A DNA stretch of 64,000 nucleotides from Gemmatimonadota bacterium. Its GTDB lineage: Bacteria > Gemmatimonadota > Gemmatimonadetes > JACCXV01 > JAHWKZ01. Below the pieces are notes generated by a model. The model was given only the letters and a program-made list of their open reading frames with translations, ran no database searches and was not told the DNA's origin. A program made the translations under genes and the position numbers. Where the stretch lies: assembly GCA_050732875.1 (NCBI GenBank), contig JBOHRQ010000008.1, forward strand, positions 1,384 through 65,383. Reading direction: 5' to 3'. This document shows, one piece after another, positions 22,836 through 36,278 of the stretch (position 1 is the first letter of the stretch; each line of letters begins with the position of its first letter).

Positions 22836-24179
22836 GTGAAAGCACACCCGAAGGCCCCGGCGATCGTGACCGGGATCCTCCTGATCTTCCTGACCGGGCC
22901 TCGCCTGGGAGCGGGGCAGGAGGCCCCAGCCACGCGCCTGGAAGCTCTCCTCGAGATCGCGCGGACCGAAAGCCCCGAGATCGAGGCCGCGGCCCAGGCG
23001 GTGGAGGCGGCCCGAGCCCGTGCGCGAGCCGCCGGGCTTCTCCCCGATCCGACGCTCGGTGTCGGGCTCGTCAACGTGCTCGTCTCAGATCCTCTCTCCT
23101 CCGAGGACTTCATGACGATGCGCATGGTCCAGATCGGCCAGCGTATGCCGTATCCCGGCAAGCTCGATCTCGAGCGCGAGGCGGCCCGCTGGGACCTGGC
23201 GGCGGCCGAGGCGGAGCGGGAACGAGTGGAGCTGGAGGTCGTCGCGTCCATCCAGCGGGACTATTACGAGATCTTCCTCATCGACCGGGCGCTCGAGATC
23301 GTGCGCCACAACCGCGCGCTCCTCGGCGACTTCCTATCGGTGACCCAAGCGCGCTACGGTGTCGGCACCGGCAGCCAGCAGGACGTGCTGAAGGCGCAGG
23401 TCGAGCAGAGCCGGCTCGGGAACGAGGTGCTCGCGCTCCATGAGCGCCGCGAGGAGGCGCTCGCCAAACTGAACGCTCTCCTCGCCCGCCCCAGCCGGAC
23501 ACCGCTCGGCGAGCTCTCGATCCCCGATCACGTCATCGCAGCGGCTCTTCCCGAGCCCGATGCAGAAGTCCGCTTCACGGCCGCCGCTCTGGAAGAGTCG
23601 GACGGAGGGCCGATCCCCGCTCTCGGGACCTTGCAGAGTCGGGCGGAGGCGGAGAACCCGATGCTGAGGGCCCACGCGGCACGGATCGCCTCCCAGCGCG
23701 CCCAGGCCGAGCTGGCGGGGAAAGCGGTGCTGCCGGATTTCGACCTGTCGGTAGGCTACGGTCAACGCGGCGGGCGCGAGGACATGATCACGGCGATGGT
23801 CTCGGTGCCGATCCCGATCTTCAAGGCGAAGAAGCAGGACGCGCTGGCGGCGGCGGAGCGCTCCGAGCTCGCGAGCTTGGAAGCCCGGCACAGCGCGATG
23901 GTGAACGGCATCCACGCTGAGGTCGCGGATCTCCACGCCTCGCTCGTCCGAGCCCGCAATCAGCTCGCGCTCCTGAAGGAGGGGATCCTGCCCCAGGCCC
24001 GGGCTTCGCTCGAGTCGGCGGTGGCTGGCTACCCGGTCGCGAGAGTCGACTTCCTGACTCTGATCGACAACCAGGCGACGCTCTTCCGTCACGAGATCGA
24101 CTACTACCGGCTCCTGAGCAAATTCGCGCAGGATCTGGCCGAGCTGGAGCGGGTGGTCGGAGGCGAGGTGCTGCGATGA
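22836..24179 (+). CDS. cusC: TolC-family outer membrane efflux protein of heavy-metal RND system (CusC/CzcC-like)
   Basis: GGAGG then 9 nt then GTG. Signal peptide. Two coiled-coil/barrel repeats typical of outer-membrane factors (OMFs) ('QARYGVGTGSQQDVLKAQ', 'RVDFLTLIDNQATLF'). Confidence 0.85.
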   Translation: MKAHPKAPAIVTGILLIFLTGPRLGAGQEAPATRLEALLEIARTESPEIEAAAQAVEAARARARAAGLLPDPTLGVGLVNVLVSDPLSSEDFMTMRMVQIGQRMPYPGKLDLEREAARWDLAAAEAERERVELEVVASIQRDYYEIFLIDRALEIVRHNRALLGDFLSVTQARYGVGTGSQQDVLKAQVEQSRLGNEVLALHERREEALAKLNALLARPSRTPLGELSIPDHVIAAALPEPDAEVRFTAAALEESDGGPIPALGTLQSRAEAENPMLRAHAARIASQRAQAELAGKAVLPDFDLSVGYGQRGGREDMITAMVSVPIPIFKAKKQDALAAAERSELASLEARHSAMVNGIHAEVADLHASLVRARNQLALLKEGILPQARASLESAVAGYPVARVDFLTLIDNQATLFRHEIDYYRLLSKFAQDLAELERVVGGEVLR

Positions 24180-25402
24180 GCGGAGACCGGCGGGGCTCCA
24201 GATCCACGATCGCGATCGTGGTCGTTGCGGCGCTGATCGCCGCCGCGGTCCTCACGTTCAGCATGTTGGCCAAGCAAGGGGGAAAGGACACGGTGCCGGG
24301 CGTGGCGGACGGCGTGCAGAACGGCGAGTCGATGGCCGGGATGGAAGGAATGGGAATGGGGGAGGGGGGGACCGTCCGCCTCACGGCCGACCAGATCCAA
24401 AACTTCGGCGTCACGTTCGGAGCGGCCGAGGTCCGGCAGCTCCAGAAGTCGATCCGCGCCGTGGGTTTCGTCGACTTCGACGAGACCCAGATGGCGTACG
24501 TGGCGCCCAAGTTCGGAGGCTACGTCGAGCGGCTCTACGTGGACTTCACCGGACAGCTGGTCTCACGCGGCCAGCCGCTCCTCGAGATCTACTCGCCCGA
24601 GCTCGTCTCGGCGCAGGAGGAGCTGCTCCTCGCGCGAAGCCTGAAAGAGAAGATCGGCGAGAGCCGTGTCGAGGGTGTGGCCGTGGGATCGACCGATCTC
24701 CTGGAGTCCGCGATGCGGCGCCTCCGCTACTGGGACATCTCCCAGGCCCAAATCGAGCAGGTTCTCGAAACGGGGCAGGTGCAGAAGACGCTCACTCTGC
24801 ACGCGCCGGTTTCGGGGATCGTCATGGAGAAGGACGTCCTCGAGGGCCAGGCGGTCCAGCCCGGCGACAACCTCTACATGATCGCCGACCTCTCGGAGGT
24901 GTGGGTCGAGGCCGAGCTCTTCGAGGCCGACGCCGCGCTGGTCGAGGAGGGAATGCCGGCCGCGATCGAGGTCGCGGCGCTGCCCGGTCGCACGTTCGAG
25001 GGCCGGATCGAATACGTCTATCCGACTCTCAAGGAGGCGACGCGGTCGATGACCGCCCGGATCGCCCTTCCCAACCCTGGCGGACGCCTCAAGCCCGGCA
25101 TGTACGCGACGGTCCGGCTGGAGAAGGACCTCGGCCAGATTCTCGCGGTCCCACGCTCGGCGGTCGTGAGGACGGGCGAGAAGGCGATCGCCTTCGTGGA
25201 CGCGGGCAGCGGCCGGCTGATGCCCCACGAGCTGACGCTGGGCATCACGGGCGAGCGGTACGTCGAGGTCCTCGAGGGCCTCGATCCGGGCACCCGCGTC
25301 GTGACCAGCGCCCAGTACCTGCTGGACAGCGAGTCCAACCTGGCCGAGGTCATGCGGGCGATGATGGCCCAGATGAGCCTGCCCGACATGCAGGATGACT
25401 GA
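24176..25402 (+). CDS. cusB: efflux RND periplasmic adaptor subunit, Cu/Ag type (CusB-like)
   Basis: ATGA overlap with cusC. Met-rich 'MAGMEGMGMGEGG' and 'MRAMMAQM' tails flank membrane-fusion-protein (MFP) beta-barrel/lipoyl motifs. Confidence 0.85.
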   Translation: MSGDRRGSRSTIAIVVVAALIAAAVLTFSMLAKQGGKDTVPGVADGVQNGESMAGMEGMGMGEGGTVRLTADQIQNFGVTFGAAEVRQLQKSIRAVGFVDFDETQMAYVAPKFGGYVERLYVDFTGQLVSRGQPLLEIYSPELVSAQEELLLARSLKEKIGESRVEGVAVGSTDLLESAMRRLRYWDISQAQIEQVLETGQVQKTLTLHAPVSGIVMEKDVLEGQAVQPGDNLYMIADLSEVWVEAELFEADAALVEEGMPAAIEVAALPGRTFEGRIEYVYPTLKEATRSMTARIALPNPGGRLKPGMYATVRLEKDLGQILAVPRSAVVRTGEKAIAFVDAGSGRLMPHELTLGITGERYVEVLEGLDPGTRVVTSAQYLLDSESNLAEVMRAMMAQMSLPDMQDD

Positions 25403-25405
25403 GCC

Positions 25406-28400
25406 ATGCTGAAGCGCGTCATCGAGTGGTCCATCCACAACAAGCTCCTCGTCCTTCTGGCAACGGCGGCGGTCGCCGTCTTCGGCCTCGCGGCGATGCT
25501 GACGACGCCGGTCGACGCGATCCCCGACCTTTCCGACGTCCAGGTCATCATCGTGACTGACTGGGCGGGCCAGGCGCCCCAGGTGATCGAGGATCAGGTC
25601 ACCTATCCCCTGTCGACCGAGATGATCAAGGTGCCGCGCACGAAGTTCGTCCGCGGCGTGAGCCAGTTCGGCCGCTCGTACGTCTACGTCGTCTTCGAGG
25701 ACGACGTGGACCTCTACTGGGCGCGCTCGCGGGTGCTCGAGTACCTGAACACGGTCCGGGACAGGCTGCCGGCGGCGGTCCAACCGCAGCTCGGCCCCGA
25801 CGCCACGGGGGTCGGATGGGTTTACCAGTATCTCCTCGTCGACACGACCGGCACCTACAACCTGGCTCAGCTCCGCTCGCTCCAGGACTGGACCGTTCGC
25901 TTCCAGCTTCAGGCGGTCGACGGAGTGGCCGAAGTGGCCACCCTCGGCGGCTTCGAGAAGCAGTACCAGGTCGACATCGTCCCGGAGCGGTTGCTGGCCT
26001 ACGGCATCCCGGTCTCGCAGATCGTCCAGGCGATCCGGGAATCGAACCAGGACGTGGGCGCGCGCGCCATCGAGCTCGGCGGCGCGGAATTCATGGTGCG
26101 CGGCCTGGGGTACATCGGCGGCCTCGAGGACATCCGGGCGATCTCGGTCGGGTCGACCCCCGCGGGAGTACCCCTGACGGTGGACGATGTCGCCGACGTC
26201 CATCCGGGCCCGCAGGAGCGCCGAGGGATCGCCGATCTCAGCGGCAAGGGCGAGGTCGTAACCGGCTTCGTCGTCATGCGCTACGGCGAGAACCCGCTGG
26301 CCGTCATCGAAGCGGTGGAAGAGAAGATACGCGAGGTCGAGAAGGGGCTGCCGGCGGGCGTGACGATCGTGGCCGGCTACGATCGCAGCAACCTGATCCA
26401 TCGCGCGATCGACACGCTCAAGGAGAAGCTCCTCGAGGAGTCGGTGATCGTCGCCCTGGTCGCGATGGCGTTTCTCCTCCACGCCCGCTCGGCGCTGGTC
26501 GCGATCGTGACCCTGCCGCTCGGGATCCTCATGGCGTTCATCGCCATGCGCTGGCTCGGAGTCAACGCGAACATCATGAGTCTGGGCGGGATCGCGATCG
26601 CGATCGGGGCCATGGTCGACGCGGCGATCGTCATGATCGAGAACATGCACAAGCACATCGAGCGGAACGAACGCGAGGGCGGGCGCCTGTCCATCTGGCA
26701 AATGGCCGCCGACAGCGCCGGCGAGGTCGGTCCGTCGCTCTTCTTCTCGCTCCTCATCATCACGGTGAGCTTCGTTCCTGTCTTCGCGCTGACCGGCCAG
26801 TCGGGACGCCTCTTCGAGCCGCTCGCCTGGACGAAGACGCTGGCGATGGCGGCGGCGAGCCTCCTCTCCGTCACCCTGGTCCCCGTCCTCATGGGGTACT
26901 TCATCCGCGGCCGGATCCGGGCCGAGGAGGAGAATCCGGTGAACCGCGCTCTCCTCCGGATGTACCGGCCGACGATCGGCTGGATCCTCGACCGGCGGAG
27001 CTGGGTGATCGTCGGTGCGGCGGCGCTCCTTCTCGTGACCGTCATTCCGTGGACTCGCCTCGGCTCCGAGTTCATGCCCCCCCTGAACGAGGGCGCGATC
27101 ATGGACATGCCGTCCCTTTTCCCCGGCGTCGGAACGGCCCAGGCCCGGCGGATCTTCCAGCAGCGCGACTCCGCCATGGCGACCGTGCCCGAGGTCGAGA
27201 TGGTGCTCGGCAAGATCGGCCGCGCAGAGTCGGCGACCGACGCCGCGCCCATGTCGATGATCGAATCGGTCGCGATCCTGAAGCCCGAAGAGGAGTGGCG
27301 TGAGGGAATGACGCAGGAGGAGATCGAGGCCGAGCTCGACCGCGTCACGAAGACGCCCGGTGTCGCCAACATGTGGTCGCAGCCGATCAAGAACCGGCTG
27401 GACATGCTGGCGACGGGGATCAAGACGCCGGTCGGGATCAAGGTCTTCGGGCCCGACCTGGCCACGCTAGAGCGGATCGGGAAGGAGATCGAAGGACTCC
27501 TTCCGACGGTCAAGGGGACGCGCTCGGTCTACGCCGAACGGGCGGTCGGCGGCCGCTACCTGGAGATCGAGGTCGACCGGGCCACGATCGCACGCTACGG
27601 GCTCTCGGTCGAGGACGTCCAGGAAACGCTCATGACCGCGGTCGGCGGTGTGGAGGCGACCGAGACAATCGAGGGACGGGAGCGCTATACCGTCCTCGTC
27701 CGCTATCCTCGCGGCCTGCGGAACGATGCGGAGGCGATCGCCCGCGTGCTGGTTCCGACCCCGGCCGGCGCCCAGGTTCCGCTCGGGCAGCTCGCCGAGA
27801 TCCGGTTCGATGACGGGCCGGACATGATCAAGAGCGAGGACGCACGGCTCAACTCGATCGTCTACGTCGACATCGGGGACCGCGACATCGGCTCCTACGT
27901 CGAGGAGGCGCGGGAGCTCCTCGACCGCTGGCTGGACCTTCCTCCAGGCTACACTCTCGAGTGGTCCGGCCAGTTCGAGTACATGCAGGAGGCCAACCGC
28001 AACCTTCGGTACATGGTCCCCGTCACGGTGGGGATCATCTTCCTCCTCCTCTTTCTAAACTTCGGCTCGCTCATCGAGAGCCTGATCGTGATGGTCTCGC
28101 TTCCGCTGGCACTGGTCGGCGGGGTGTGGCTCATGTGGGCGCTGGGGTACAACCTGAGCGTCGCGGCCGGTGTGGGGTTCATCGCGTTGGCCGGGGTCGC
28201 GGCCGAGATCGGAATCGTCATGCTCGTCTACCTCGACCAGGCCTACCACCGGGGCGTGCTGGCGGGCACGATGCGGGATCGGCGCGATGTCTTCGCGGCC
28301 GTGCGGGAGGGTGCTGGGGAGCGGGTCCGGCCGATCATGATGACCGCCACCGCGGTGATCGGCGGGCTCCTGCCGATCCTATGGGGCCACGGAACCGGCG

Positions 28401-28594
28401 CCAGCGTCATGAAGCGGATCGCCGCGCCCATGGTCGGCGGGATGGTCTCGGTCACGGTGCTGGCGCTCCTCGTGATCCCCGCCCTGTACTCGTTCTGGCG
28501 CGAGCGTCAGCTAGTGCGGCAGAGCCGCCGCCAGCGGGTGACGGATGCGATGGGCGACGAAGCCGCCACACCGGCCCTCACAGGTCTATCTTGA
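25406..28594 (+). CDS. cusA: CusA/CzcA-family heavy-metal efflux RND transporter
   Basis: 1062 aa with 12 transmembrane helices (TMs) and two large periplasmic loops. 'MLKRVIEWSIHNKLLVLL' is a classic CusA/CzcA N-terminus. Confidence 0.95.
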   Translation: MLKRVIEWSIHNKLLVLLATAAVAVFGLAAMLTTPVDAIPDLSDVQVIIVTDWAGQAPQVIEDQVTYPLSTEMIKVPRTKFVRGVSQFGRSYVYVVFEDDVDLYWARSRVLEYLNTVRDRLPAAVQPQLGPDATGVGWVYQYLLVDTTGTYNLAQLRSLQDWTVRFQLQAVDGVAEVATLGGFEKQYQVDIVPERLLAYGIPVSQIVQAIRESNQDVGARAIELGGAEFMVRGLGYIGGLEDIRAISVGSTPAGVPLTVDDVADVHPGPQERRGIADLSGKGEVVTGFVVMRYGENPLAVIEAVEEKIREVEKGLPAGVTIVAGYDRSNLIHRAIDTLKEKLLEESVIVALVAMAFLLHARSALVAIVTLPLGILMAFIAMRWLGVNANIMSLGGIAIAIGAMVDAAIVMIENMHKHIERNEREGGRLSIWQMAADSAGEVGPSLFFSLLIITVSFVPVFALTGQSGRLFEPLAWTKTLAMAAASLLSVTLVPVLMGYFIRGRIRAEEENPVNRALLRMYRPTIGWILDRRSWVIVGAAALLLVTVIPWTRLGSEFMPPLNEGAIMDMPSLFPGVGTAQARRIFQQRDSAMATVPEVEMVLGKIGRAESATDAAPMSMIESVAILKPEEEWREGMTQEEIEAELDRVTKTPGVANMWSQPIKNRLDMLATGIKTPVGIKVFGPDLATLERIGKEIEGLLPTVKGTRSVYAERAVGGRYLEIEVDRATIARYGLSVEDVQETLMTAVGGVEATETIEGRERYTVLVRYPRGLRNDAEAIARVLVPTPAGAQVPLGQLAEIRFDDGPDMIKSEDARLNSIVYVDIGDRDIGSYVEEARELLDRWLDLPPGYTLEWSGQFEYMQEANRNLRYMVPVTVGIIFLLLFLNFGSLIESLIVMVSLPLALVGGVWLMWALGYNLSVAAGVGFIALAGVAAEIGIVMLVYLDQAYHRGVLAGTMRDRRDVFAAVREGAGERVRPIMMTATAVIGGLLPILWGHGTGASVMKRIAAPMVGGMVSVTVLALLVIPALYSFWRERQLVRQSRRQRVTDAMGDEAATPALTGLS

Positions 28595-28710
28595 CCTGGG
28601 ACAGGCGGGCCTCAAAGAACCGCGTGAGCGCCTCGCACAGCGCGATCCGCACTCCTGGCTTCGTGCTCGAGCTATCGAAGCGACTGCGCGAGGCGAGATT
28701 CACGGCGCAA

Positions 28711-29183
28711 TCAAGTCAGAATCCCCGACTTCTGATAGATTGGGGTCTTCCAAACCGTCGCGACGGCTCTCATCCGGAACCGCCTCTTCAGGTATTGTTC
28801 GATCGCGGCGACGTAGCGCGGGAAGACCTCCCGTGCCTTGCCGACTGCCTGCAGGATGATCCCGTCGTCGATGTTCTCGTACTCGTGGATGATTCGGTTT
28901 CGAAGGCCGGCGGACGGGGGCAGGGATTCTGCAAGTTGGCTTGGAATCACCTTCTCACGTCCCACGGCGATAAAGCTCTCGAAGTAGTCCAGGGGAGTCT
29001 TCGCGTCCCGGTCGCGCAGGATGTGCAGGTTGATATCGACGGCCGCTTCGACAGTTTCCTGGAGGGCGCGCTCCGTACCTTTCAGCCGGAAGAAGTCCCC
29101 GATGTACTCCTCCAGCGTGAGTCCCTCAATCCCTCGAGATGATCCACATTTCTGCCTATAACGGCGAGCTTCCGCCGCACCAT
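28711..29183 (-). CDS. hepT: HepT-like HEPN toxin (DUF86), apparently disrupted by a 1-nt deletion (-1 frameshift)
   Basis: HEPN R-x4-HxY motif 'LRNRIIHEYENID'. Strong similarity to characterised HepT ('AVDINLHILRDRDAKTPLDYFESFIAVG'). The HepT-like N-terminus 'MVRRKLAVIGRNVDHLEGLRD' (ATG 29183) is in another frame and joins the main frame near 29120. In the main frame only a TTG at 29235 is available as a start. Confidence 0.6.
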
Positions 29184-29200
29184 GGCTGCGTCCAGTGGGG

Positions 29201-29635
29201 TCACGTCCGTTCCGCTGTTCGCCCGATGAAGTCAAGAACCTCTTCTCGCTCCGCCAGGCGGAACTTCCTGGTGTCGGCGTACCGACGGACCGCCAGCGAG
29301 CAGAAGCGAGCGAATGCTCCCGATTCGGCCTCGTACAGTGGCAATCCGTCCTTTGCCACGAACATCATGAGGAGCGGATCGGCCCGGCGGAGGTCTGCGA
29401 TGTCGACTTCCTGGACTCCGAGCACCTGGATAAAACGATTCGTCGCATGCACCGTGTCGAGCTCATCACGCGAGACGATCGCCAGGTCGATGTCTTCGGT
29501 GAACGCTTCATTGCGTGCCGTGGATCCGAACAGGATGATCAGACGGACCTCGAGCTCGCGTCCGATCTCGTTGGCCGCAACCCGGAGACGCTCAATCGAA
29601 ACGGTAGGGCTCGGAGGTTTCATCTCGCGCTGCAT
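29201..29635 (-). CDS. mntA: MntA-like minimal nucleotidyltransferase antitoxin
   Basis: NTase motif 'LFGSTARNEAFTEDIDLAIV' (GS...DxD). It lies immediately upstream of hepT with a 17-nt gap. Confidence 0.7.
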   Translation of the reverse strand: MQREMKPPSPTVSIERLRVAANEIGRELEVRLIILFGSTARNEAFTEDIDLAIVSRDELDTVHATNRFIQVLGVQEVDIADLRRADPLLMMFVAKDGLPLYEAESGAFARFCSLAVRRYADTRKFRLAEREEVLDFIGRTAERT

Positions 29636-29784
29636 GATGCTTGAAGATACTATGCGGAGGAGGAACAAGGATCGGCTGCCCTCGACGCCGCTCACTCCTC
29701 GTGGGGCGGTGAGTCGGTTCCTTCATGCGGCGGGCTCCGTCCTGGCGATCATCGTCGGTAGGGAGCCGCCGGCGGTGGTCCTCT

Positions 29785-29813
29785 TGACCTGGATACCCTA
29801 CAATGGTATAGTA
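29785..29813 (+). promoter_or_regulatory. csoR-copA promoter (TTGACC-16-TATAGT) with overlapping CsoR operator
   Basis: 'TACCCTACaatgGTATAGTA' (29794-29813) closely matches the B. subtilis CsoR box TACCCTACggggGTATgGTA. -35 TTGACC at 29785-29790. -10 TATAGT at 29807-29812, ending 8 nt before the csoR ATG, so the transcript is leaderless. Confidence 0.55.
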
Positions 29814-29820
29814 TAGAATC

Positions 29821-30129
29821 ATGGTCCAGCGCAAGTCTCACGGATACGAACGGGCCCGGGTCAAGCCGGACCTGGAGAACCGCCTCAAGCGGATCGAGGG
29901 GCAGGTGCGGGGGGTCCAGCGGATGGTGGAGGAGGGCCGCTACTGCGTGGACATTCTGACCCAGATCGACGCCGTCACGGCGGCGCTCGCCCGGGTGCAG
30001 GACCGGATCCTCGAGGCCCATCTCAACCATTGCGTCATTGACGCCCTCGAAGGGAGCGACACCGCGAACGTACGAGAGAAAGTCGACGAGGTGGTCGGGC
30101 TGCTCAGGAAGTTCCGGCGGACCGGATGA
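29821..30129 (+). CDS. csoR: copper-sensing transcriptional repressor CsoR (CsoR/RcnR family)
   Basis: Cu(I) ligands in the C...H-x3-C pattern: 'RYCVDIL' and '[10 protein letters not shown]'. The 102 aa are typical of the DUF156 fold. Confidence 0.85.
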
Positions 30130-32498
30130 GCACGAGAACCGCCGCCCCCGTGGCCCCAGAGCGGGAGATCGAGCTCGCCGTCGAGGGAATGCACTGCGCC
30201 TCCTGCGTGAGCCGGGTCGAGTCCGAGCTGACCGCTCTTGCCGGGGTGACGGCCGCCTCCGTCAACCTTGCCACCGACTCCGCGCTGGTGCGGACGGTCT
30301 CCGGGGGGCTGCGCGCGCGGGACCTGGTCGAGGCGGTCCGCCGGGCGGGCTACGAGGCGTCGGTCGTGACCGGGGCCACCCGCGAAGAGGAGGCCCGGCG
30401 GGCCGAGCGCGTGCGCGAGGAGGCGCGGCTCGGGCGCCGCTTCTGGGTCGCCCTGGCGTTCACCGCGCCACTCGTCGTCTTCGAGATGATCCCGCATCTC
30501 CTGATGCCGCTGGGGCTTGACCTCGGCTGGCCGGTTCTCGACCCGCGGGTCCAGCTCCTCCTCGCGACCCCGGTCGTTCTCTACAGCGGACGGCGGTTCT
30601 TCCGCGGGGCCTGGAGCGGTCTCCGCCACCGCTCGGCCGACATGAACACGCTGATCGCAGTCGGAACCGGAACCGCGTACGGCTACAGCGCGGTCGCGAC
30701 CATGGCACCGGGCCTCTTCCGCGCGGCGGGGATCACGCCGTCGGTCTACTTCGAGGCGGCGGCAACGATCGTCACGCTGATCCTGCTCGGCACCTGGCTC
30801 GAGACACGAGCCCGCGGGCGGACGGGGCAGGCGATCCGCGCGCTGCTCGACCTCCGGCCCGAGGTCGCCAGCGCGCGCCGCGACGGGCGCGAGGTCGAGG
30901 TGCCGGTCGAGGACCTGGAGCCGGGCGACGTGCTCGTCGTGCGGCCCGGAGAGCGCATTGCCGTGGACGGCGAGGTCCTCGAGGGCCGGACCACCGTCGA
31001 CGAGTCGATGCTGACCGGCGAGTCCATGCCGGTCGAGAAGGCCCCCGGCGACGCGGTCGTGGGCGGGACGATGAACCGCACCGGAGTGATCGCGTTCCGG
31101 GCGACCAGGGTCGGTTCCGAGACGGCCCTGGCGCAGATCGTCCGTCTGGTCCGCGAGGCGCAGGCGTCGAAGGCGCCCGTCCAGCGGCTCGCCGACACGG
31201 TGGCCGCATACTTCGTGCCCATCGTGATCGCCATCGCGATCGCCACCTTCGTGGTCTGGTTCGTAGTGGGTCCCGAGCCCTCACTGCCCTACGCGGTCGT
31301 GACGGCCGTGGCGGTCCTGATCATCGCCTGCCCGTGCGCGCTCGGGCTGGCGACGCCGACGGCGGTCATGGTGGGCACCGGCCGCGGCGCCGAGCTGGGG
31401 ATCCTGATACGGGACGCCGAGAGCCTCCAGAAGGCCCACGAGCTGGACACCGTGGTGCTGGACAAGACCGGCACGGTGACACGCGGCGCGCCCGCCGTGA
31501 CCGACGTTCTCCCAGCGGCTGGCGTGAGCGACGCCGAGCTCCTCGCGCTAGCCGCCGCTGTGGAGCGGGGCTCGGAGCATCCGATCGGCGAGGCGATCGT
31601 GCGCGCCGCCGAAAGCCGCGCCGCCGCGCCGCCGCCGGCCGCCGACTTCGAGGCGCTGGCCGGCCAGGGCGTCCGGGCCTCGGTGGATGGCCGCGAGGTC
31701 GTGATCGGAACCGCCGTGCTGCTGGCGGAGCGAGACATCGATCTTGTAGATCTGGCTGGAGAGACCGCGCAGGCCGTGGTCGAGCGGTTGGCGGACGCCG
31801 GCAAGACGCCCGTGCTGGTGGCGCGCGCCGGGAAGTTGCTCGGCGCGATCGCCGTGGCCGACACTGTCCAGGAGGGGGCCGCCGAAGCGGTGGCGGCGCT
31901 CCGCTCGCGCGAGCTCGACGTCATCATGATGACGGGCGACAACCCGCGCACCGCCGAGGCCATCGCTCGTCAGGTCGGGATCGAACGCGTCCTGGCCGAG
32001 GTCCTGCCGGAAGAGAAAGAGGAGCGGATCCGCGCCCTCCAGGAGGAGGGCCGGGTGGTGGCGATGGTGGGCGACGGGATCAACGATGCCCCGGCATTGG
32101 TCCGGGCCGACATCGGGATCGCCATCGGCACCGGGACCGACGTCGCTATCGAGGCCGGCGACATCACGCTTATCAAGGCCGACCTGCGCGGCGTCGTCCA
32201 GGCGATCGCGCTCTCCAGAAAGACCATGCGGACGATCCGCCAGAACCTCTTCTGGGCGTTCGTCTATAATGTGCTCGGGATCCCGCTGGCAGCGGGCGTC
32301 TTCTATCCATGGACCGGCCTCCTTCTCGCTCCGTGGGTCGGTGCCCTGGCGATGGTCCTGAGCGACATCTTCGTGATGGGAAACTCGCTGCGGCTGAGGA
32401 CGGTGCGGCTCGGCGGCGCGAGGCGCGGTCCGTCTACAGCGATGACGGGGAACGGGGTTTCCGGCGGAATCGTGACCTCCGGGAGCGCCACGGCATGA
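30126..32498 (+). CDS. copA: copper-translocating P1B-type ATPase
   Basis: ATGA overlap with csoR. Heavy-metal-associated (HMA) domain 'GMHCASC'. 'CPC' in '[13 protein letters not shown]'. 'DKTGTVT', 'MTGDN', '[10 protein letters not shown]'. Confidence 0.95.
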
Positions 32499-32605
32499 CG
32501 CCGGTCGAATGGGCGGTTGCCGTTGGCGGGCTGACGCTCATCGCCTTCGAGTTGTGGTTCTTCCTGGGCGGCGCGCCGGGGCGGAACCGGGGGCCTCGGC
32601 CATGA
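32495..32605 (+). CDS. small hydrophobic ORF (36 aa) translationally coupled to copA
   Basis: The ATG at 32495 overlaps the copA stop (ATGA). '[28 protein letters not shown]' is a single predicted TM helix. Confidence 0.35.
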
Positions 32606-33081
32606 CCGGCTCGCGCCGCTCGGCGCTCAGGCTCGCGATGCCCGCCCTCCTCCTGGCGCTTCTCGTCCCGGCGCGGGCGATCTCCCTCTGCTGCCTCGAC
32701 ATGGTGGGGACACAGACTCCAGCCGCCCGCCACTCGACCCATGGGTCGATGCCACATCATCGGTCGGAAGCGGAGTCCGTGCCGGTCGGCCAGGCCTTGG
32801 CGCCCCTCCCTACGTCCGTTTGCGTCATTCTGGCCACCCCCGCCCCCGTTTTGCGCGAGCGTGGCCGCTCGGGCGACGCGGCGGCCGGGGTGGGCGACCT
32901 CGCTCTCGCGTCGACGGCTGGGCTCGGCTACCCCCCGACGCGCGATCGCCCCGTCCATCCCTGGCTCACGTCCGTCCCTCAGCCTGCCGGGCTAGAGAGC
33001 CCGCATCCCCTGCGGTTGTAGGCCGCGCGGTCTTTCGCTTTTCGCGAGCGACCCCGTCCCATCAACCATGCAGGTGAAACG

Positions 33082-34428
33082 ATGCTCAATCCTCGACTCG
33101 CTAACGCGCTCGCCGCGCTCGCGCTCTTTCTCCTGGCCTCCCGGCCGACGGCCGCGCAGGAGCACCGCCACCCGGCGCCGCCGCCCGCCGATTCGGCGGC
33201 GATGGTTTCGATGCCCGAAATGGCCATGCGGCCGGGCCTGCTCGGTATCCCTCGCACGCGCGAGGGCTCGGGCACGGCCTGGCTCCCCGACGCGAGCCCC
33301 ATGCATGCCCTGCACCGCCGGGCCGGCGACTGGGAGCTCATGCTCCACGGCAGCCTCTTCGTCCACTACCTCGACGACGGCGGCGATCGCGGCCGGGAGC
33401 AGTTCGGGGCCACCAACTGGATCATGGGGATGGCCCGCCGGCCGGCGGGGGGGGGCGACCTGACGCTCCGTGCCATGTTGAGCGCCGATCCCTTGACCGC
33501 GGACGAATGCGGCTACCCTGACCTCCTCGCGACCGGCGAGTTCTGCGACGGCGAACCGCTCCACGACCGGCAGCATCCGCACGACCTCTTCATGGAGCTG
33601 GCCGGCGTCTACGAGCGGGCGCTCGCGGAGGGTCTCGCGCTCCAGGTCTACGGGGGGCCGGTCGGCGAGCCGGCGCTGGGGCCGGTCGCCTTCCCCCATC
33701 GCGTCTCCTCGTTCCCCAACCCGATCGCCCCGATCGGCCATCACTGGCTCGACTCGACCCACATCGCGTTCGGCGTCGCGACGGCCGGGATCTACGGCTA
33801 CCGCTGGAAAGCCGAGATGTCGCTCTTCAACGGCCGCGAGCCGGACGCCGAGCGCTACGACTTCGATCTCGACGCGCTCGACTCGTACGCGGGACGATTC
33901 TGGCTCCTGCCGAACGACCGGTGGGCGCTCCAGGTCTCGGCAGGACGGCTGAACGAGGCGGAAGTGCACGAAGCCGGCGGCCCGCGCATCGACGTCACGC
34001 GCGTGACCGCGTCGGCGACCTACCACCGCCCGCTGGCGGAGGAAGGGGTCTGGGCCGGCACGATGGCCTGGGGACGAAACCGCGAAGGAAGCGAGGCGAC
34101 CCATGCCTTCCTCGCCGAGGCCAGCCTCAACCTCGCCGACCGCGACGTCTTCTACGGCCGGGTCGAGGTCGCGGAGAAGACCGGCGGAGATCTGGTTCTG
34201 CCGGAGGAGCTCGAGGAGCGGTCGTTCACGGTCGGGAAGCTCGGGCTCGGCTACGTACGCCAGCTCGATCCCGTGGCCGGCCTCGTGCCCGGCATTGGCG
34301 CCGGCATCAGCGTTTCGCGCGTGCCCGACCAGCTCGAAGCGTTCTACGGCTCGACGACCCTGACGGGATTTCAGGCCTTCTTCCGGCTGCGGCCGGCGCC
34401 GATGACGGCGGGAGGCCACGCGCACTGA
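33082..34428 (+). CDS. secreted His-rich hypothetical protein downstream of copA (possible outer-membrane/periplasmic copper-handling protein)
   Basis: Signal peptide 'MLNPRLANALAALALFLLASRPTAAQ'. 'EHRHPAPPP', 'MVSMPEMAM' and 'DRQHPHDLFMEL' are His/Met motifs. 448 aa. No terminal aromatic residue. Confidence 0.55.
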   Translation: MLNPRLANALAALALFLLASRPTAAQEHRHPAPPPADSAAMVSMPEMAMRPGLLGIPRTREGSGTAWLPDASPMHALHRRAGDWELMLHGSLFVHYLDDGGDRGREQFGATNWIMGMARRPAGGGDLTLRAMLSADPLTADECGYPDLLATGEFCDGEPLHDRQHPHDLFMELAGVYERALAEGLALQVYGGPVGEPALGPVAFPHRVSSFPNPIAPIGHHWLDSTHIAFGVATAGIYGYRWKAEMSLFNGREPDAERYDFDLDALDSYAGRFWLLPNDRWALQVSAGRLNEAEVHEAGGPRIDVTRVTASATYHRPLAEEGVWAGTMAWGRNREGSEATHAFLAEASLNLADRDVFYGRVEVAEKTGGDLVLPEELEERSFTVGKLGLGYVRQLDPVAGLVPGIGAGISVSRVPDQLEAFYGSTTLTGFQAFFRLRPAPMTAGGHAH

Positions 34429-34503
34429 TGGCCGCCGTGGGGCATTGTGCCTGGCGGGCGCCGGGGGTGGATCCGGCACCCACCACGTAGACAGGAGAGG
34501 CGG

Positions 34504-35652
34504 CTACTCGATCAGCTGGACGCCCTTGATGCCTGGCGCGCTCACCTCGCCGCCCACGATCCCGGTGGCGTAGAGGATGCGCCCGAACAATTGCTGGTTG
34601 TTGCCGTTCCCGGAGACGCCCTCGAAGAACACCGCGATGAAGTTGGTGAAGACGAGCTCCTTGCGGCCGGGCAGGAACGAGCGTGAGGGATCGAACGTCG
34701 GCACGATGCCGATCCGCGGGCTCCCCTCCCACGGATCCCAGGCGCTCCCGACGACCTGGTTCTCGACGGGATCCCAGGAGGCGGCGGAATCCAGCGCGAT
34801 GAGATCCTCGACGCCTTTCACGGTGTTCCCGAACATGTTGCCCGGCTCGGTCTCGTACTCGTCGCCGACCGTGATGATCGCGGGGTTGCAGAACGCGATG
34901 TTGTCCCTGTACCACCGGCCCCCGATACCGCCCGGAATCACCCACGGGTAATACCAGCTCGGGCCTGTCCCCGGGCAGCAGCCGTCACCCTGCTTCACGT
35001 TCCCCTTCAGGACGATCGGGCGGCCGAAGTCGTTGATGTAGCCCAGCCCGTCATCTCCCGGCTGGCCGGGATTTCTCCAGCTCGACCCGTACCCCGTCAC
35101 GGCCGGGTCGTATACGTCGACGCCGGGATCGAACGTGTCGTTCCCGTCGTTGCTGTCGTAGCGGTCATAGATCGAGAACGGCTTCACGCAGGTAGCCGCC
35201 CCCGCCGGCGCCACGCGCGCCGTCGCATCCGCCCCGATGTTGACGACATCGACACCGAAGATCCGGGCGAACCATGTGGCGACCGGTCCCCCGCGGACAT
35301 CGTCGCGATGCGCGCGAACCGTCACCGTGTAGTCGACGAGGTCGACGTCCACGTCCTCGACGGGGTCGATGTCGATCGCCCCCTGGACGTCGTTCATCTC
35401 CCCGAATCGCTCCGCTTCCGAGCGGGCGAATCCATCATCGTCGAAGTTGTTTCTGAGCGCCCCGGCCCCGGCCATCGCCGCGGCATCGGCGGTCCGCTGA
35501 GCCTCGGTCTTGGCGGTGAGCAGCATGCCGACGTCGACGGCCAGGGCGACGACCGAGAGGAGTGCGGTCATCGCGATGGCAACGACGACGATCGTCGCCC
35601 CGCGCTCCGAGCGCCGGATCCCGAACGAGTTTTGCATGGGCATACCAACCCC
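34504..35652 (-). CDS. TadE/TadG-like (Flp pilus-associated) protein
   Basis: GGAAGGGG then 5 nt then ATG 35652. The N-terminus 'RGATIVVVAIAMTALLSVVALAVDVGMLLTAKTEAQRTADAAAMAGA' matches the TadE-like family. No other tad genes are nearby. Confidence 0.7.
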   Translation of the reverse strand, partial: GVGMPMQNSFGIRRSERGATIVVVAIAMTALLSVVALAVDVGMLLTAKTEAQRTADAAAMAGAGALRNNFDDDGFARSEAERFGEMNDVQGAIDIDPVEDVDVDLVDYTVTVRAHRDDVRGGPVATWFARIFGVDVVNIGADATARVAPAGAATCVKPFSIYDRYDSNDGNDTFDPGVDVYDPAVTGYGSSWRNPGQPGDDGLGYINDFGRPIVLKGNVKQGDGCCPGTGPSWYYPWVIPGGIGGRWYRDNIAFCNPAIITVGDEYETEPGNMFGNTVKGVEDLIALDSAASWDPVENQVVGSAWDPWEGSPRIGIVPTFDPSRSFLPGRKELVFTNFIAVFFEGVSGNGNNQQLFGRILYATGIVGGEVSAPGIKGVQLIE

Positions 35653-35753
35653 TTCCGCATCAGATGCGTGCGGGTTGGCCCGGGGGAGGATCGGTAGCTT
35701 ACAACGTCCGGAGTCAGCCGCGCAAGGGCAGGACATGTGGTAGATTACGATCT

Positions 35754-36278
35754 GTGCGACCGCTGACGATGCTTCTCACGCTCCTCGCCGCCTGCGGCGG
35801 GGCGGAGCCGGCCACCACCCGCGTTCCGTCCACGCCGGGGACCGGCGACCCCTGGATCACGATCGAGGGGGTGCTGTTCCCGGACGTCTTCGCCGAGGCC
35901 CCGGACGAGATCGTCGAGGCGTACGTGTTCGCCGCCAAGCACCCCGAGGTCCTGAGCTACATGCCGTGCTACTGCGGCTGCGAGCGCGAGAGTCCGCCCC
36001 ACGACTCCAACTACGACTGCTTCGTCGACGCGATCGACCGGACCGGCCCGCTCCCGCGCGTGAGCCCGGACCCGATGGGGTTCGGCTGAACGATCTGCGT
36101 GGATATCGCCCGGGAGGCGAAGAGGCGGTACGAGGCGGGCATGCCGCTCCCCGAGATCCGGGAGATCGTCGAGGAGAAGTACAGCCAAGGCCGGCCGGGG
36201 ACGCCGACCCCCCACCCGCCGGCCGACGAGGCCGCGCTGAACGGAGCCGGTCCGTCGGACGAGCTTACTGGCGGGTGA
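35754..36278 (+). CDS. PCYCGC-motif family lipoprotein with in-frame TGA at 36087-36089 (candidate selenoprotein, or a nonsense-mutated gene)
   Basis: Lipobox 'LLAACGG'. 'YMPCYCGCERE...NYDCF' then an in-frame TGA then 'TICVDIAREAKRRYEAGMPLPEIREIVEEKY'. This continues in the same frame with coding-like composition for 62 more codons. The TGA sits where this six-Cys family has its CxxC. Confidence 0.5.

Follow-up and report, generated by a model that had tools for sequence, protein, structure and literature searches.

A 36-residue membrane peptide encoded behind copA in a Gemmatimonadota copper operon: a candidate pump subunit related to the anchor helix of CupA-like chaperones

A small gene tied to copA

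Why should the gene of a copper ATPase be followed, across overlapping stop and start codons, by a reading frame for a single-pass membrane peptide of only 36 residues, and is that frame a gene at all? The question is raised by a csoR-copA unit in a stretch of 64,000 nucleotides (nt) from a Gemmatimonadota bacterium (assembly GCA_050732875.1, contig JBOHRQ010000008.1, positions 1,384 to 65,383 of the forward strand). The whole stretch is called the window here, and coordinates refer to it unless a related locus (L with a number) is named. The unit had been described in a sequence-only reading, made without database searches, and every feature named there was found again in the sequence and its open reading frames (ORFs). 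The peptide, termed p36, is the product of a conserved gene whose sequence traces to the membrane anchor of CupA-like copper chaperones, and we favour the view that it may serve the pump CopA as a small subunit. The unit is laid out as follows.

29784-29812, + strand: promoter and operator (read from the sequence)
29784-29789, + strand: -35 hexamer TTGACC (promoter scan)
29793-29809, no strand assigned: CsoR operator ATACCCTACAATGGTAT, TAC-N9-GTA with arms ATACC/GGTAT
29807-29812, + strand: -10 hexamer TATAGT, ending 8 nt ahead of the csoR ATG (29821)
29821-30129, + strand: csoR, 102 residues, Cu(I)-sensing repressor by family
30126-32498, + strand: copA, 790 residues, P1B-type copper ATPase by family
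32495-32605, + strand: p36, single-pass membrane peptide of 36 residues
32602-33021, + strand: p139, 139 residues, annotated as hypothetical protein ACREMK_03030
33072-33077, + strand: Shine-Dalgarno-like AGGTGA, 4 nt ahead of the p448 ATG (read from the sequence)
33082-34428, + strand: p448, 448 residues, predicted porin-like outer-membrane beta-barrel; product identical to 'hypothetical protein ACREMK_03035' of a Gemmatimonadota metagenome-assembled genome

The first four genes are linked by ATGA overlaps, in which the start codon of one gene is laced into the stop codon of its predecessor (csoR/copA at 30126-30129, copA/p36 at 32495-32498, p36/p139 at 32602-32605). This chain, already seen in the sequence-only reading, is kept in related loci: the copA/p36 junction is ATGA in 16 of 17 loci, the exception being L010 with a 13-nt gap, and the stop codon of p36 is overlapped by ATGA, GTGA or TTGA. 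As the same junctions recur in related loci, the overlaps are not a product of chance.

A search with p36 plus four extra residues as the query led to a family of 22 members of 33-52 residues, all but one of which (21 of 22) are 33-36 residues long, and in every locus recovered the gene stands directly after copA. The sequence-only reading had put forward both small frames as translated ORFs and had named synteny across related genomes as a check; both are present in orthologous copA loci and are real, conserved genes. Selection on the peptide can be read from its codons. Eleven distinct DNA versions give a ratio of non-synonymous to synonymous differences (pN/pS) of 0.25 over codons 1-25, with 11, 8 and 19 variable sites at first, second and third codon positions. 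On a common set of loci the ratio is 0.28 for p36, compared with 0.35 over the final 200 codons of copA and 0.33 over p448, and it drops to 0.07 in the p36 core (codons 14-25, pS 0.49), with the reservation that uncorrected pS is near saturation (about 0.5). Purifying selection on p36 is strong, to about the same degree as on copA. Ten residues are invariant (W6, G12, L15, E19, L20, W21, F22, F23, L24 and G25).

The gene is retained in two loci where p139 is missing (L085 and L095), and also in L099, where neither p139 nor p448 is present and copA is followed by the p36 member of that locus (p35) and then by a two-component system. The exact p36 peptide is present in a protein collection, where it has neither accession nor name, and it has no GenBank accession in its own genome. 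Peptides of this kind are missed by genome annotation.

Ancestry of p36

The lead to the origin of p36 was a weak match to proteins whose genes adjoin copA in L028 and L006; these consist of an N-terminal membrane helix and a Cupredoxin_1 domain (PF13473). Cupredoxin proteins of this type are homologues of the membrane-anchored Cu(I) chaperone CupA from Streptococcus pneumoniae (PDB 2MRY/4F2E, E 3e-21), with the Cys...CGMxM ligands kept. CupA-like genes were found by tblastn in 110 plasmid records, and their position differs between groups. In Burkholderia thailandensis (with a 4-nt overlap), Deinococcus, Hymenobacter and Alteromonas the CupA-like gene lies immediately downstream of the ATPase gene, in the same slot as p36; this arrangement of full-length CupA-like genes is seen in L100, L102, L104 and L107. 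The Firmicutes have the gene upstream of that for the ATPase, and in a Streptomyces plasmid (L101, 3001-5535) and in Manganitrophus (L105, 2801 onward) the entire module of helix and cupredoxin is fused to the ATPase N-terminus.

From Met1 onwards p36 can be aligned, with no gap, to twelve CupA-like N-termini drawn from at least nine phyla, the common pattern being [IV]x[LV]xGxxLIAFxxW[FWY]F. CupA of S. pneumoniae and the PF13473 proteins beside P1B ATPases share this ungapped likeness, with the pattern GxxLIAFxxW[FY]F. Such patterns can mislead. A scan of metagenomes with a p36 pattern gave six loci, two of which were chance matches: L093 (1057-1830) and L094 (690-1478) were rejected as relatives, the match being a membrane helix of undecaprenyl-diphosphatase, WALLLGGIALIAFELWY, that resembles the p36 core by chance. 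This match is a warning on pattern scans wherever membrane helices are involved, and because of it the link to CupA was tested with an independent hidden Markov model (HMM) and with shuffled sequences. The model was built from the 12 cupredoxin-protein N-termini, with p36 left out, and searched against 14,401 ORFs. All p36 members score 29-48 bits (E 5e-13 to 4e-7), p36 of the window reaching 34.9 bits (E 6e-9), and the next unrelated match has an E value of 0.09. Composition-preserving shuffles of p36 peak at 17 bits, and 0 of 2000 per sequence reach the real score.

At the level of sequence, these comparisons establish p36 as a descendant of the N-terminal membrane helix of CupA-like chaperones from which the cupredoxin domain has been lost. 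The peptide has no match to PF13473 and ends about 10 residues past the helix, so differing from the CupA-like family in having neither the cupredoxin fold nor the Cys...CxMxM ligands, and tblastn with five cupredoxin proteins against five loci found no remnant of the domain downstream of p36 in any frame. Since the domain with its Cu(I) ligands is absent, p36 is not filed as a member of CupA; it is a derivative of the CupA-like anchor. A further difference is Glu19, which is invariant in p36 and specific to this lineage, the CupA-like family having V, I, L, N or Q at this position.

Two statements of the sequence-only reading have to be revised here. It had seen no obvious homologue of the peptide, which does not agree with the homology to the N-terminal helix of PF13473 chaperones found by the HMM and the shuffles, and it had offered CcoS/FixS as an analogy, for which the sequences give no support, all 22 members being without a Pfam match and NCBIfam likewise having no match for p36. 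A frameshifted or read-through extension of CopA was also considered and rejected, as Met1 of p36 aligns with Met1 of the CupA-like proteins and as the resulting ninth helix would place the Arg-rich tail outside.

Operon control and the envelope proteins

By their family matches csoR and copA are ordinary members with known biology, and the identities assigned to them from the letters agree with Pfam, TIGR models and PDB relatives. CsoR matches PF02583 (DUF156, 'metal-sensitive transcriptional repressor') with E 1.1e-30 and 106 bits, against a cut-off of 22.8. Its best solved relatives are the CsoR structures 4M1P (E 3e-23) and 4ADZ (E 5e-20), with whose residues Cys42 (RYCVD), His67 and Cys71 (NHC) align to give the x-Cys-His-Cys fingerprint for Cu(I), and it carries the RLKR DNA-binding motif. 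CopA scores 626.6 bits with TIGR01511 (cut-off 397) and 664.3 with TIGR01525 (cut-off 346), matches E1-E2_ATPase, Hydrolase and HMA (PF00403, E 9e-15) in Pfam, and has one N-terminal HMA domain (GMHCASC), CPC in transmembrane segment 4 (TM4), DKTGT, and YN in TM5.

One departure is seen in TM6, where MxxSS is the signature of the P1B-1 subgroup. CopA of the window has MVLSD (32340-32360), with the first Ser kept and Asp in place of the second. The main p36 clade has the same segment in each of its 14 CopAs, the other CopAs in the fetched loci having M[AST][FL]S[ST]. Co-variation of MVLSD with p36 was rejected as independent evidence, as it comes from a single clade and has an exception in L099, where p35 is found with the canonical MAFSS. 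The correlation may reflect shared ancestry.

The promoter scan gives TTGACC-17-TATAGT with 10 of 12 consensus matches and a TG-extended -10; the spacer is 17 nt long and not 16 as had been counted. This spacer is filled by the operator ATACCCTACAATGGTAT, the right arm of which, GGTAT, extends into the -10. An operator over the -10 had been predicted and is indeed present, but the 20-mer proposed for it (29794-29813) is less well defined than ATACCCTACAATGGTAT at 29793-29809. In the 64-kb window ATAC-N9-GTAT has a single match, ATAC-CCTACAATG-GTAT, against 0.03 expected by chance. Operators upstream of csoR were found in three related loci, and a fifth copy stands ahead of a cupA-copA-csoR operon in L028.

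L085: ATACCCCCGTGGGGTAT
L088: ATACCCCCATGGGGTAT
L010: ATACCCCATTAGGGTAT

The arrangement is kept together with the operator. In the window and these three loci GGTAT enters the -10 (TATAGT, TATCAT or TATATT), and in the window, L085 and L088 the -10 is separated by 17 nt from a preceding -35 that reads TTGACC or TTGACT. The distances from the -10 to the ATG are 8, 9, 6 and 11 nt across the window, L085, L088 and L010, and in none of the four is there a Shine-Dalgarno sequence ahead of csoR. The start codon of csoR can be taken as fixed, because the ORF cannot be extended upstream and conservation begins at residues 4-6 in the alignment with PDB relatives. The conserved geometry, with 6-11 nt between -10 and ATG in four loci, supports a leaderless or near-leaderless csoR mRNA, which is consistent with what had been proposed from the window alone. 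A second promoter-like match, TGGATA-18-TAGAAT (29790-29819, + strand), ends 1 nt ahead of the csoR ATG and is not kept in related loci.

Type-2 CsoR operators have been described (PMC3902906) as inverted repeats, TAC-X9-GTA, on either side of C/G tracts. ATACCCTACAATGGTAT satisfies this rule, with G-tracts shorter than in the Streptomyces consensus, and its conservation over the -10 in related loci likewise speaks for the predicted CsoR-type operator. The unit resembles the CsoR operons of B. subtilis (csoR/copZA) and Streptomyces lividans (CsoR regulon), with which it shares a PF02583 repressor with a Cys-His-Cys Cu(I) site, a promoter-overlapping TAC-N9-GTA operator and a P1B copper ATPase as the target. 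It differs from them in that csoR is the first gene and apparently leaderless, in the absence of a CopZ gene, in the short G-tracts of the operator (CCC/GG), and in the three extra coupled genes after copA.

The first envelope protein, p139, had been entered as a possible His-containing secreted ORF; it is a real gene, and its product has a signal sequence and is Cys- and His-rich. Conserved in it are LLVPARA-I(A/S)LCC, a His cluster, a third Cys, the motif PALRER and, at the C-terminus, HPLRL. Orthologues of 129-139 residues, with the reading frame kept intact, overlap the stop codon of p36 in 7 loci (ATGA, GTGA, TTGA or TGATG). When 1.84 billion representative proteins were searched exhaustively, 14 matched, most of which share the p139 motifs; Pfam and NCBIfam gave no family match. 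With a pN/pS of 0.75 and an AlphaFold2 (AF2) model that is confident only in the N-terminal helix, p139 is a real but weakly constrained and fast-evolving protein, largely disordered, with short conserved motifs. The possibility that it is a frame-shifted cupredoxin remnant was rejected, tblastn having matched only residues 1-34, that is, p36.

PcoE/SilE and the chaperone CusF are periplasmic metal-binding proteins with Met/His ligands. p139 is like them in being small, metal-ligand-rich and predicted to be disordered, in having a signal sequence and in being encoded in a copper resistance cluster; it differs in its Cys/His ligands, in its PALRER and C-terminal PLR[LIV] motifs and in having no family match. 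A second comparison is with Acidobacteriota, in which a protein of 115-126 residues is encoded directly before the p448 homologue and has a hydrophobic N-terminus, CxxxC, CHE, HxCH and a C-terminal PLR[IV]. This family, which lies some 100-400 nt ahead of the gene for the p448 homologue (L008, L009, L014, L021-L023, L027 and others), is without a match in Pfam. In 17 of 42 loci an ORF upstream ends in LR[LIVR], compared with 0.7% of background ORFs. Because sequence statistics do not link the two families, we regard the resemblance as one of shared architecture only. In more distant p448 loci (Verrucomicrobiota, other Gemmatimonadaceae) the place upstream is taken by other small Cys-rich ORFs, for example 'SNHCA...CPFH...CCK', one of them with 'HPLSRI':

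L070, 9083-9634: small Cys-rich ORF
L078, 9195-9632: small Cys-rich ORF
L032, 33-395: small Cys-rich ORF

The protein that follows p139, p448, which the sequence-only reading had listed as secreted and with His/Met motifs, has a signal peptide and a His/Met-rich N-terminal tail. It is, by its structural model, a porin-like outer-membrane barrel: the AF2 model (predicted local distance difference test, pLDDT, 75.6; predicted template modelling score, pTM, 0.76) is all-beta, a large barrel of about 20 long strands, and Foldseek against PDB returns the 16-18-strand porins Omp32, OmpF and OprP (E about 4e-9, probability 1.00, TM-scores 0.46-0.64, target-normalised). Scans of Pfam and NCBIfam gave no family with an E value of 0.1 or below, and a profile search of PDB sequences had no match at E up to 1. 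The p448 family itself is large, with at least 8000 clusters at E 1e-3 in Gemmatimonadota, Acidobacteriota, Myxococcota, Verrucomicrobiota and other phyla, and the named ones are all 'hypothetical'. Invariant columns (DRQHPHD, HHWLDSTHI and two Cys) fall in a poorly modelled insert between strands. In 80 loci the recurrent neighbours are CopA (28), CusA (14), CopC (9), multicopper oxidase (9) and CusB (7). Some homologues (P0094, P0115 and P0118) have about 600 residues and an extra YHS domain (PF04945) or PF17830.

Signal peptide, flexible His/Met-rich N-terminus and porin-fold barrel liken p448 to PcoB/CopB and the 16-18-strand porins, and with PcoB/CopB it also shares genomic linkage to copper resistance genes. 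It is set apart from them by the invariant His/Cys insert, which is unique to it, and by the lack of a sequence match to CopB (PF05275), to porin families of Pfam or NCBIfam, or to PDB.

Proposed function and rival readings

For the whole we lean, at somewhat better than even odds, towards a csoR-copA-p36-p139(-p448) copper efflux operon in which p36 is a subunit of CopA. The unit would be a copper-inducible operon running from csoR to p139 and probably on into p448. From what is known of the family, CsoR would sit on the TAC-N9-GTA operator and block RNA polymerase when copper is absent, and Cu(I) bound at Cys42, His67 and Cys71 would release it. The conserved geometry suggests a transcript that begins at, or a few nucleotides from, the csoR ATG, and copA, p36 and p139 would be translated by termination and reinitiation at the conserved 4-nt overlaps. 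Family membership marks CopA as an exporter of Cu(I) from the cytoplasm. Beyond the inner membrane, copper would probably be handled by p139 in the periplasm together with the outer-membrane barrel p448, which may be a copper channel that acts with the small Cys/His protein.

p36 itself would most likely pack against the membrane domain of CopA, as a small subunit that stabilises or tunes the pump. The positive-inside rule, together with the analogy to CupA and its cytoplasmic soluble domain, would place the N-terminus outside and the Arg-rich tail on the cytoplasmic side, with Glu19 at the level of the inner leaflet, and this newly acquired invariant residue may well be the functional one. 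The anchor helix is conserved over many phyla, and since a mere tether would neither keep its sequence across phyla nor be fused to the ATPase, the CupA-type helix probably contacts the pump. The peptide would be a functional microprotein apparently born by domain loss, in which the anchor of a chaperone outlives the chaperone, and this too suggests direct contact between CupA-type anchors and the pump. A bolder version, to which we give only tentative credence, takes the helix as a specific ATPase-binding element and more than a tether, p36 as a free-standing CopA subunit of 33-36 residues with a new membrane-embedded Glu, and p139 and p448 as an undescribed copper module of a Cys/His protein and a porin that is widespread in Gemmatimonadota and Acidobacteriota. 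If this is true, p36 is the P1B-ATPase counterpart of KdpF or sarcolipin.

Several observations weigh against this picture. In a published chimera CopZ was joined to the membrane helix of CupA and could not take the place of CupA (PMC7558416), and the helix alone is therefore insufficient for chaperone function in that system. The p36 family is confined to one clade of Gemmatimonadota, which limits the evolutionary depth of its conservation. p139 is dispensable in some lineages (L085 and L095), its homology with the acidobacterial small proteins has no statistical support (E 0.7), and many homologues of p448 are not beside copA. The leader of csoR may be longer if transcription comes from an upstream promoter. 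Finally, co-transcription of p448 in the window is not certain, because the gene follows p139 after a gap of 60 nt, has its own AGGTGA Shine-Dalgarno sequence, and is preceded by a weak terminator-like hairpin with a T-rich run (33020-33033, + strand) directly after the p139 stop, which might attenuate read-through into it. In the loci without p139 the spacing is closer: in L095 the called p448 start overlaps the p36 stop by 4 nt, and in L085 it is called 18 nt after p36, an overlapping GTG being available too.

The truncated appearance of p36 invites the explanation that it is a decaying 5' remnant of a cupA-like gene, or a mere relay ORF for ribosomes whose peptide is inert. By the HMM it is indeed the N-terminal stub of a larger gene family, the downstream DNA holds no cupredoxin remnant in any frame, and both of its ends are 4-nt overlaps, as a coupling element would show. 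However, the amino-acid sequence is what has been kept: variation is concentrated at third codon positions, core codons 14-25 have the pN/pS of 0.07 at pS 0.49 given above, the length of 33-36 residues holds in 21 of 22 members, and a new invariant Glu19 has been fixed. The peptide moreover persists in L099, with no p139 or p448 after it to be relayed to, and we consider decay or relay unlikely. Slightly less likely again is a partnership with the downstream envelope proteins instead of CopA, for example as an inner-membrane partner or insertion helper of p139 or p448. It would account for the p36 stop overlapping the p139 start in most loci, or lying within 18 nt of the p448 start where p139 is lacking. 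Yet the invariant neighbour of p36 is copA, L099 has copA and p35 followed by a two-component system, most p448 homologues (80 genomes) occur without p36, and the ancestral CupA-like family is tied, and in places fused, to the ATPase. An assembly peptide of the CcoS/FixS type, likewise tiny, single-helical and encoded directly after a copper P1B ATPase, seems very improbable, as none of the 22 members matches FixS (PF03597) or any other Pfam family even at E 10, the neighbours are csoR, copA, p139 and p448 with no adjacent cbb3 oxidase genes, and there is a specific positive match to another family, that of the CupA-like anchor HMM.

A rival of a different kind concerns p448, which, with or without p139, could be a channel for uptake or exchange of copper or another metal, supplying cuproenzymes, or a general porin, rather than the outer leg of efflux. 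In fold it belongs with the diffusion porins, which work passively and in both directions, its neighbours elsewhere include CopC, multicopper oxidase and cytochrome c, that is, copper users as well as detoxifiers, and some homologues are nowhere near copA. Against this stand the coupling of p448 in this clade to a CsoR-repressed efflux operon, so that it would be induced by excess copper, which is odd for import, and the overlap of its start with the p36 stop in L095. We regard uptake as possible, though doubtful.

Our preferred reading, p36 as a subunit of CopA, has its closest parallels among other small membrane proteins. KdpF is a single-helix partner of a P-type ATPase; like it, and like PacL1-3 (DUF1490) of M. 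tuberculosis and CcoS/FixS, p36 is a tiny membrane protein encoded in a P-type ATPase operon, and it differs from all of them in having no sequence relationship to them. The PacL proteins extend into the cytoplasm with a region that can carry a metal-binding motif, whereas p36 hardly reaches beyond the membrane. The P1B ATPases concerned depend on the PacL proteins for both stability and localisation (PMC13460109).

Of this unit, csoR and copA represent known biology. The reading of p36 is corrected to that of a chaperone anchor without its domain, and p139 and p448 belong to an unannotated copper-linked envelope module. The p448 family accounts for thousands of clusters without annotation, whose genes lie among copper genes in soil phyla that are seldom cultured though dominant in metagenomes; it may provide the way for copper to cross the outer membrane, a step that is poorly understood.

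A complete efflux operon with cusC-like (OEP), cusB-like (HlyD_D23) and cusA-like (ACR_tran, 1062 residues) genes lies just ahead of the csoR unit (22836-28594, + strand), which makes the region a metal-resistance island. Between cusA and csoR there is a toxin-antitoxin pair of HepT ribonuclease and MNT nucleotidyltransferase (28711-29695, - strand), and an Rfam scan of 28500-35000 gave no match. The downstream neighbours of the operon are a TadG-like gene and then a PCYCGC-domain protein (PF13798, function unknown; 35562-36089, + strand). Members of PF13798 adjoin p448 or p36 elsewhere too (L097, 2393-2704; L099, 2559-3191), a recurrence that suggests a link to copper. In related loci, though not in the window, p448 is followed by a conserved trio of unannotated genes, with products of about 199 and 62 residues encoded on the opposite strand and then one of about 198 residues:

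L085, 11421-12932: gene trio after p448
L087, 4857-6324: gene trio after p448
L095, 2661-4159: gene trio after p448
L097, 2880-4304: gene trio after p448

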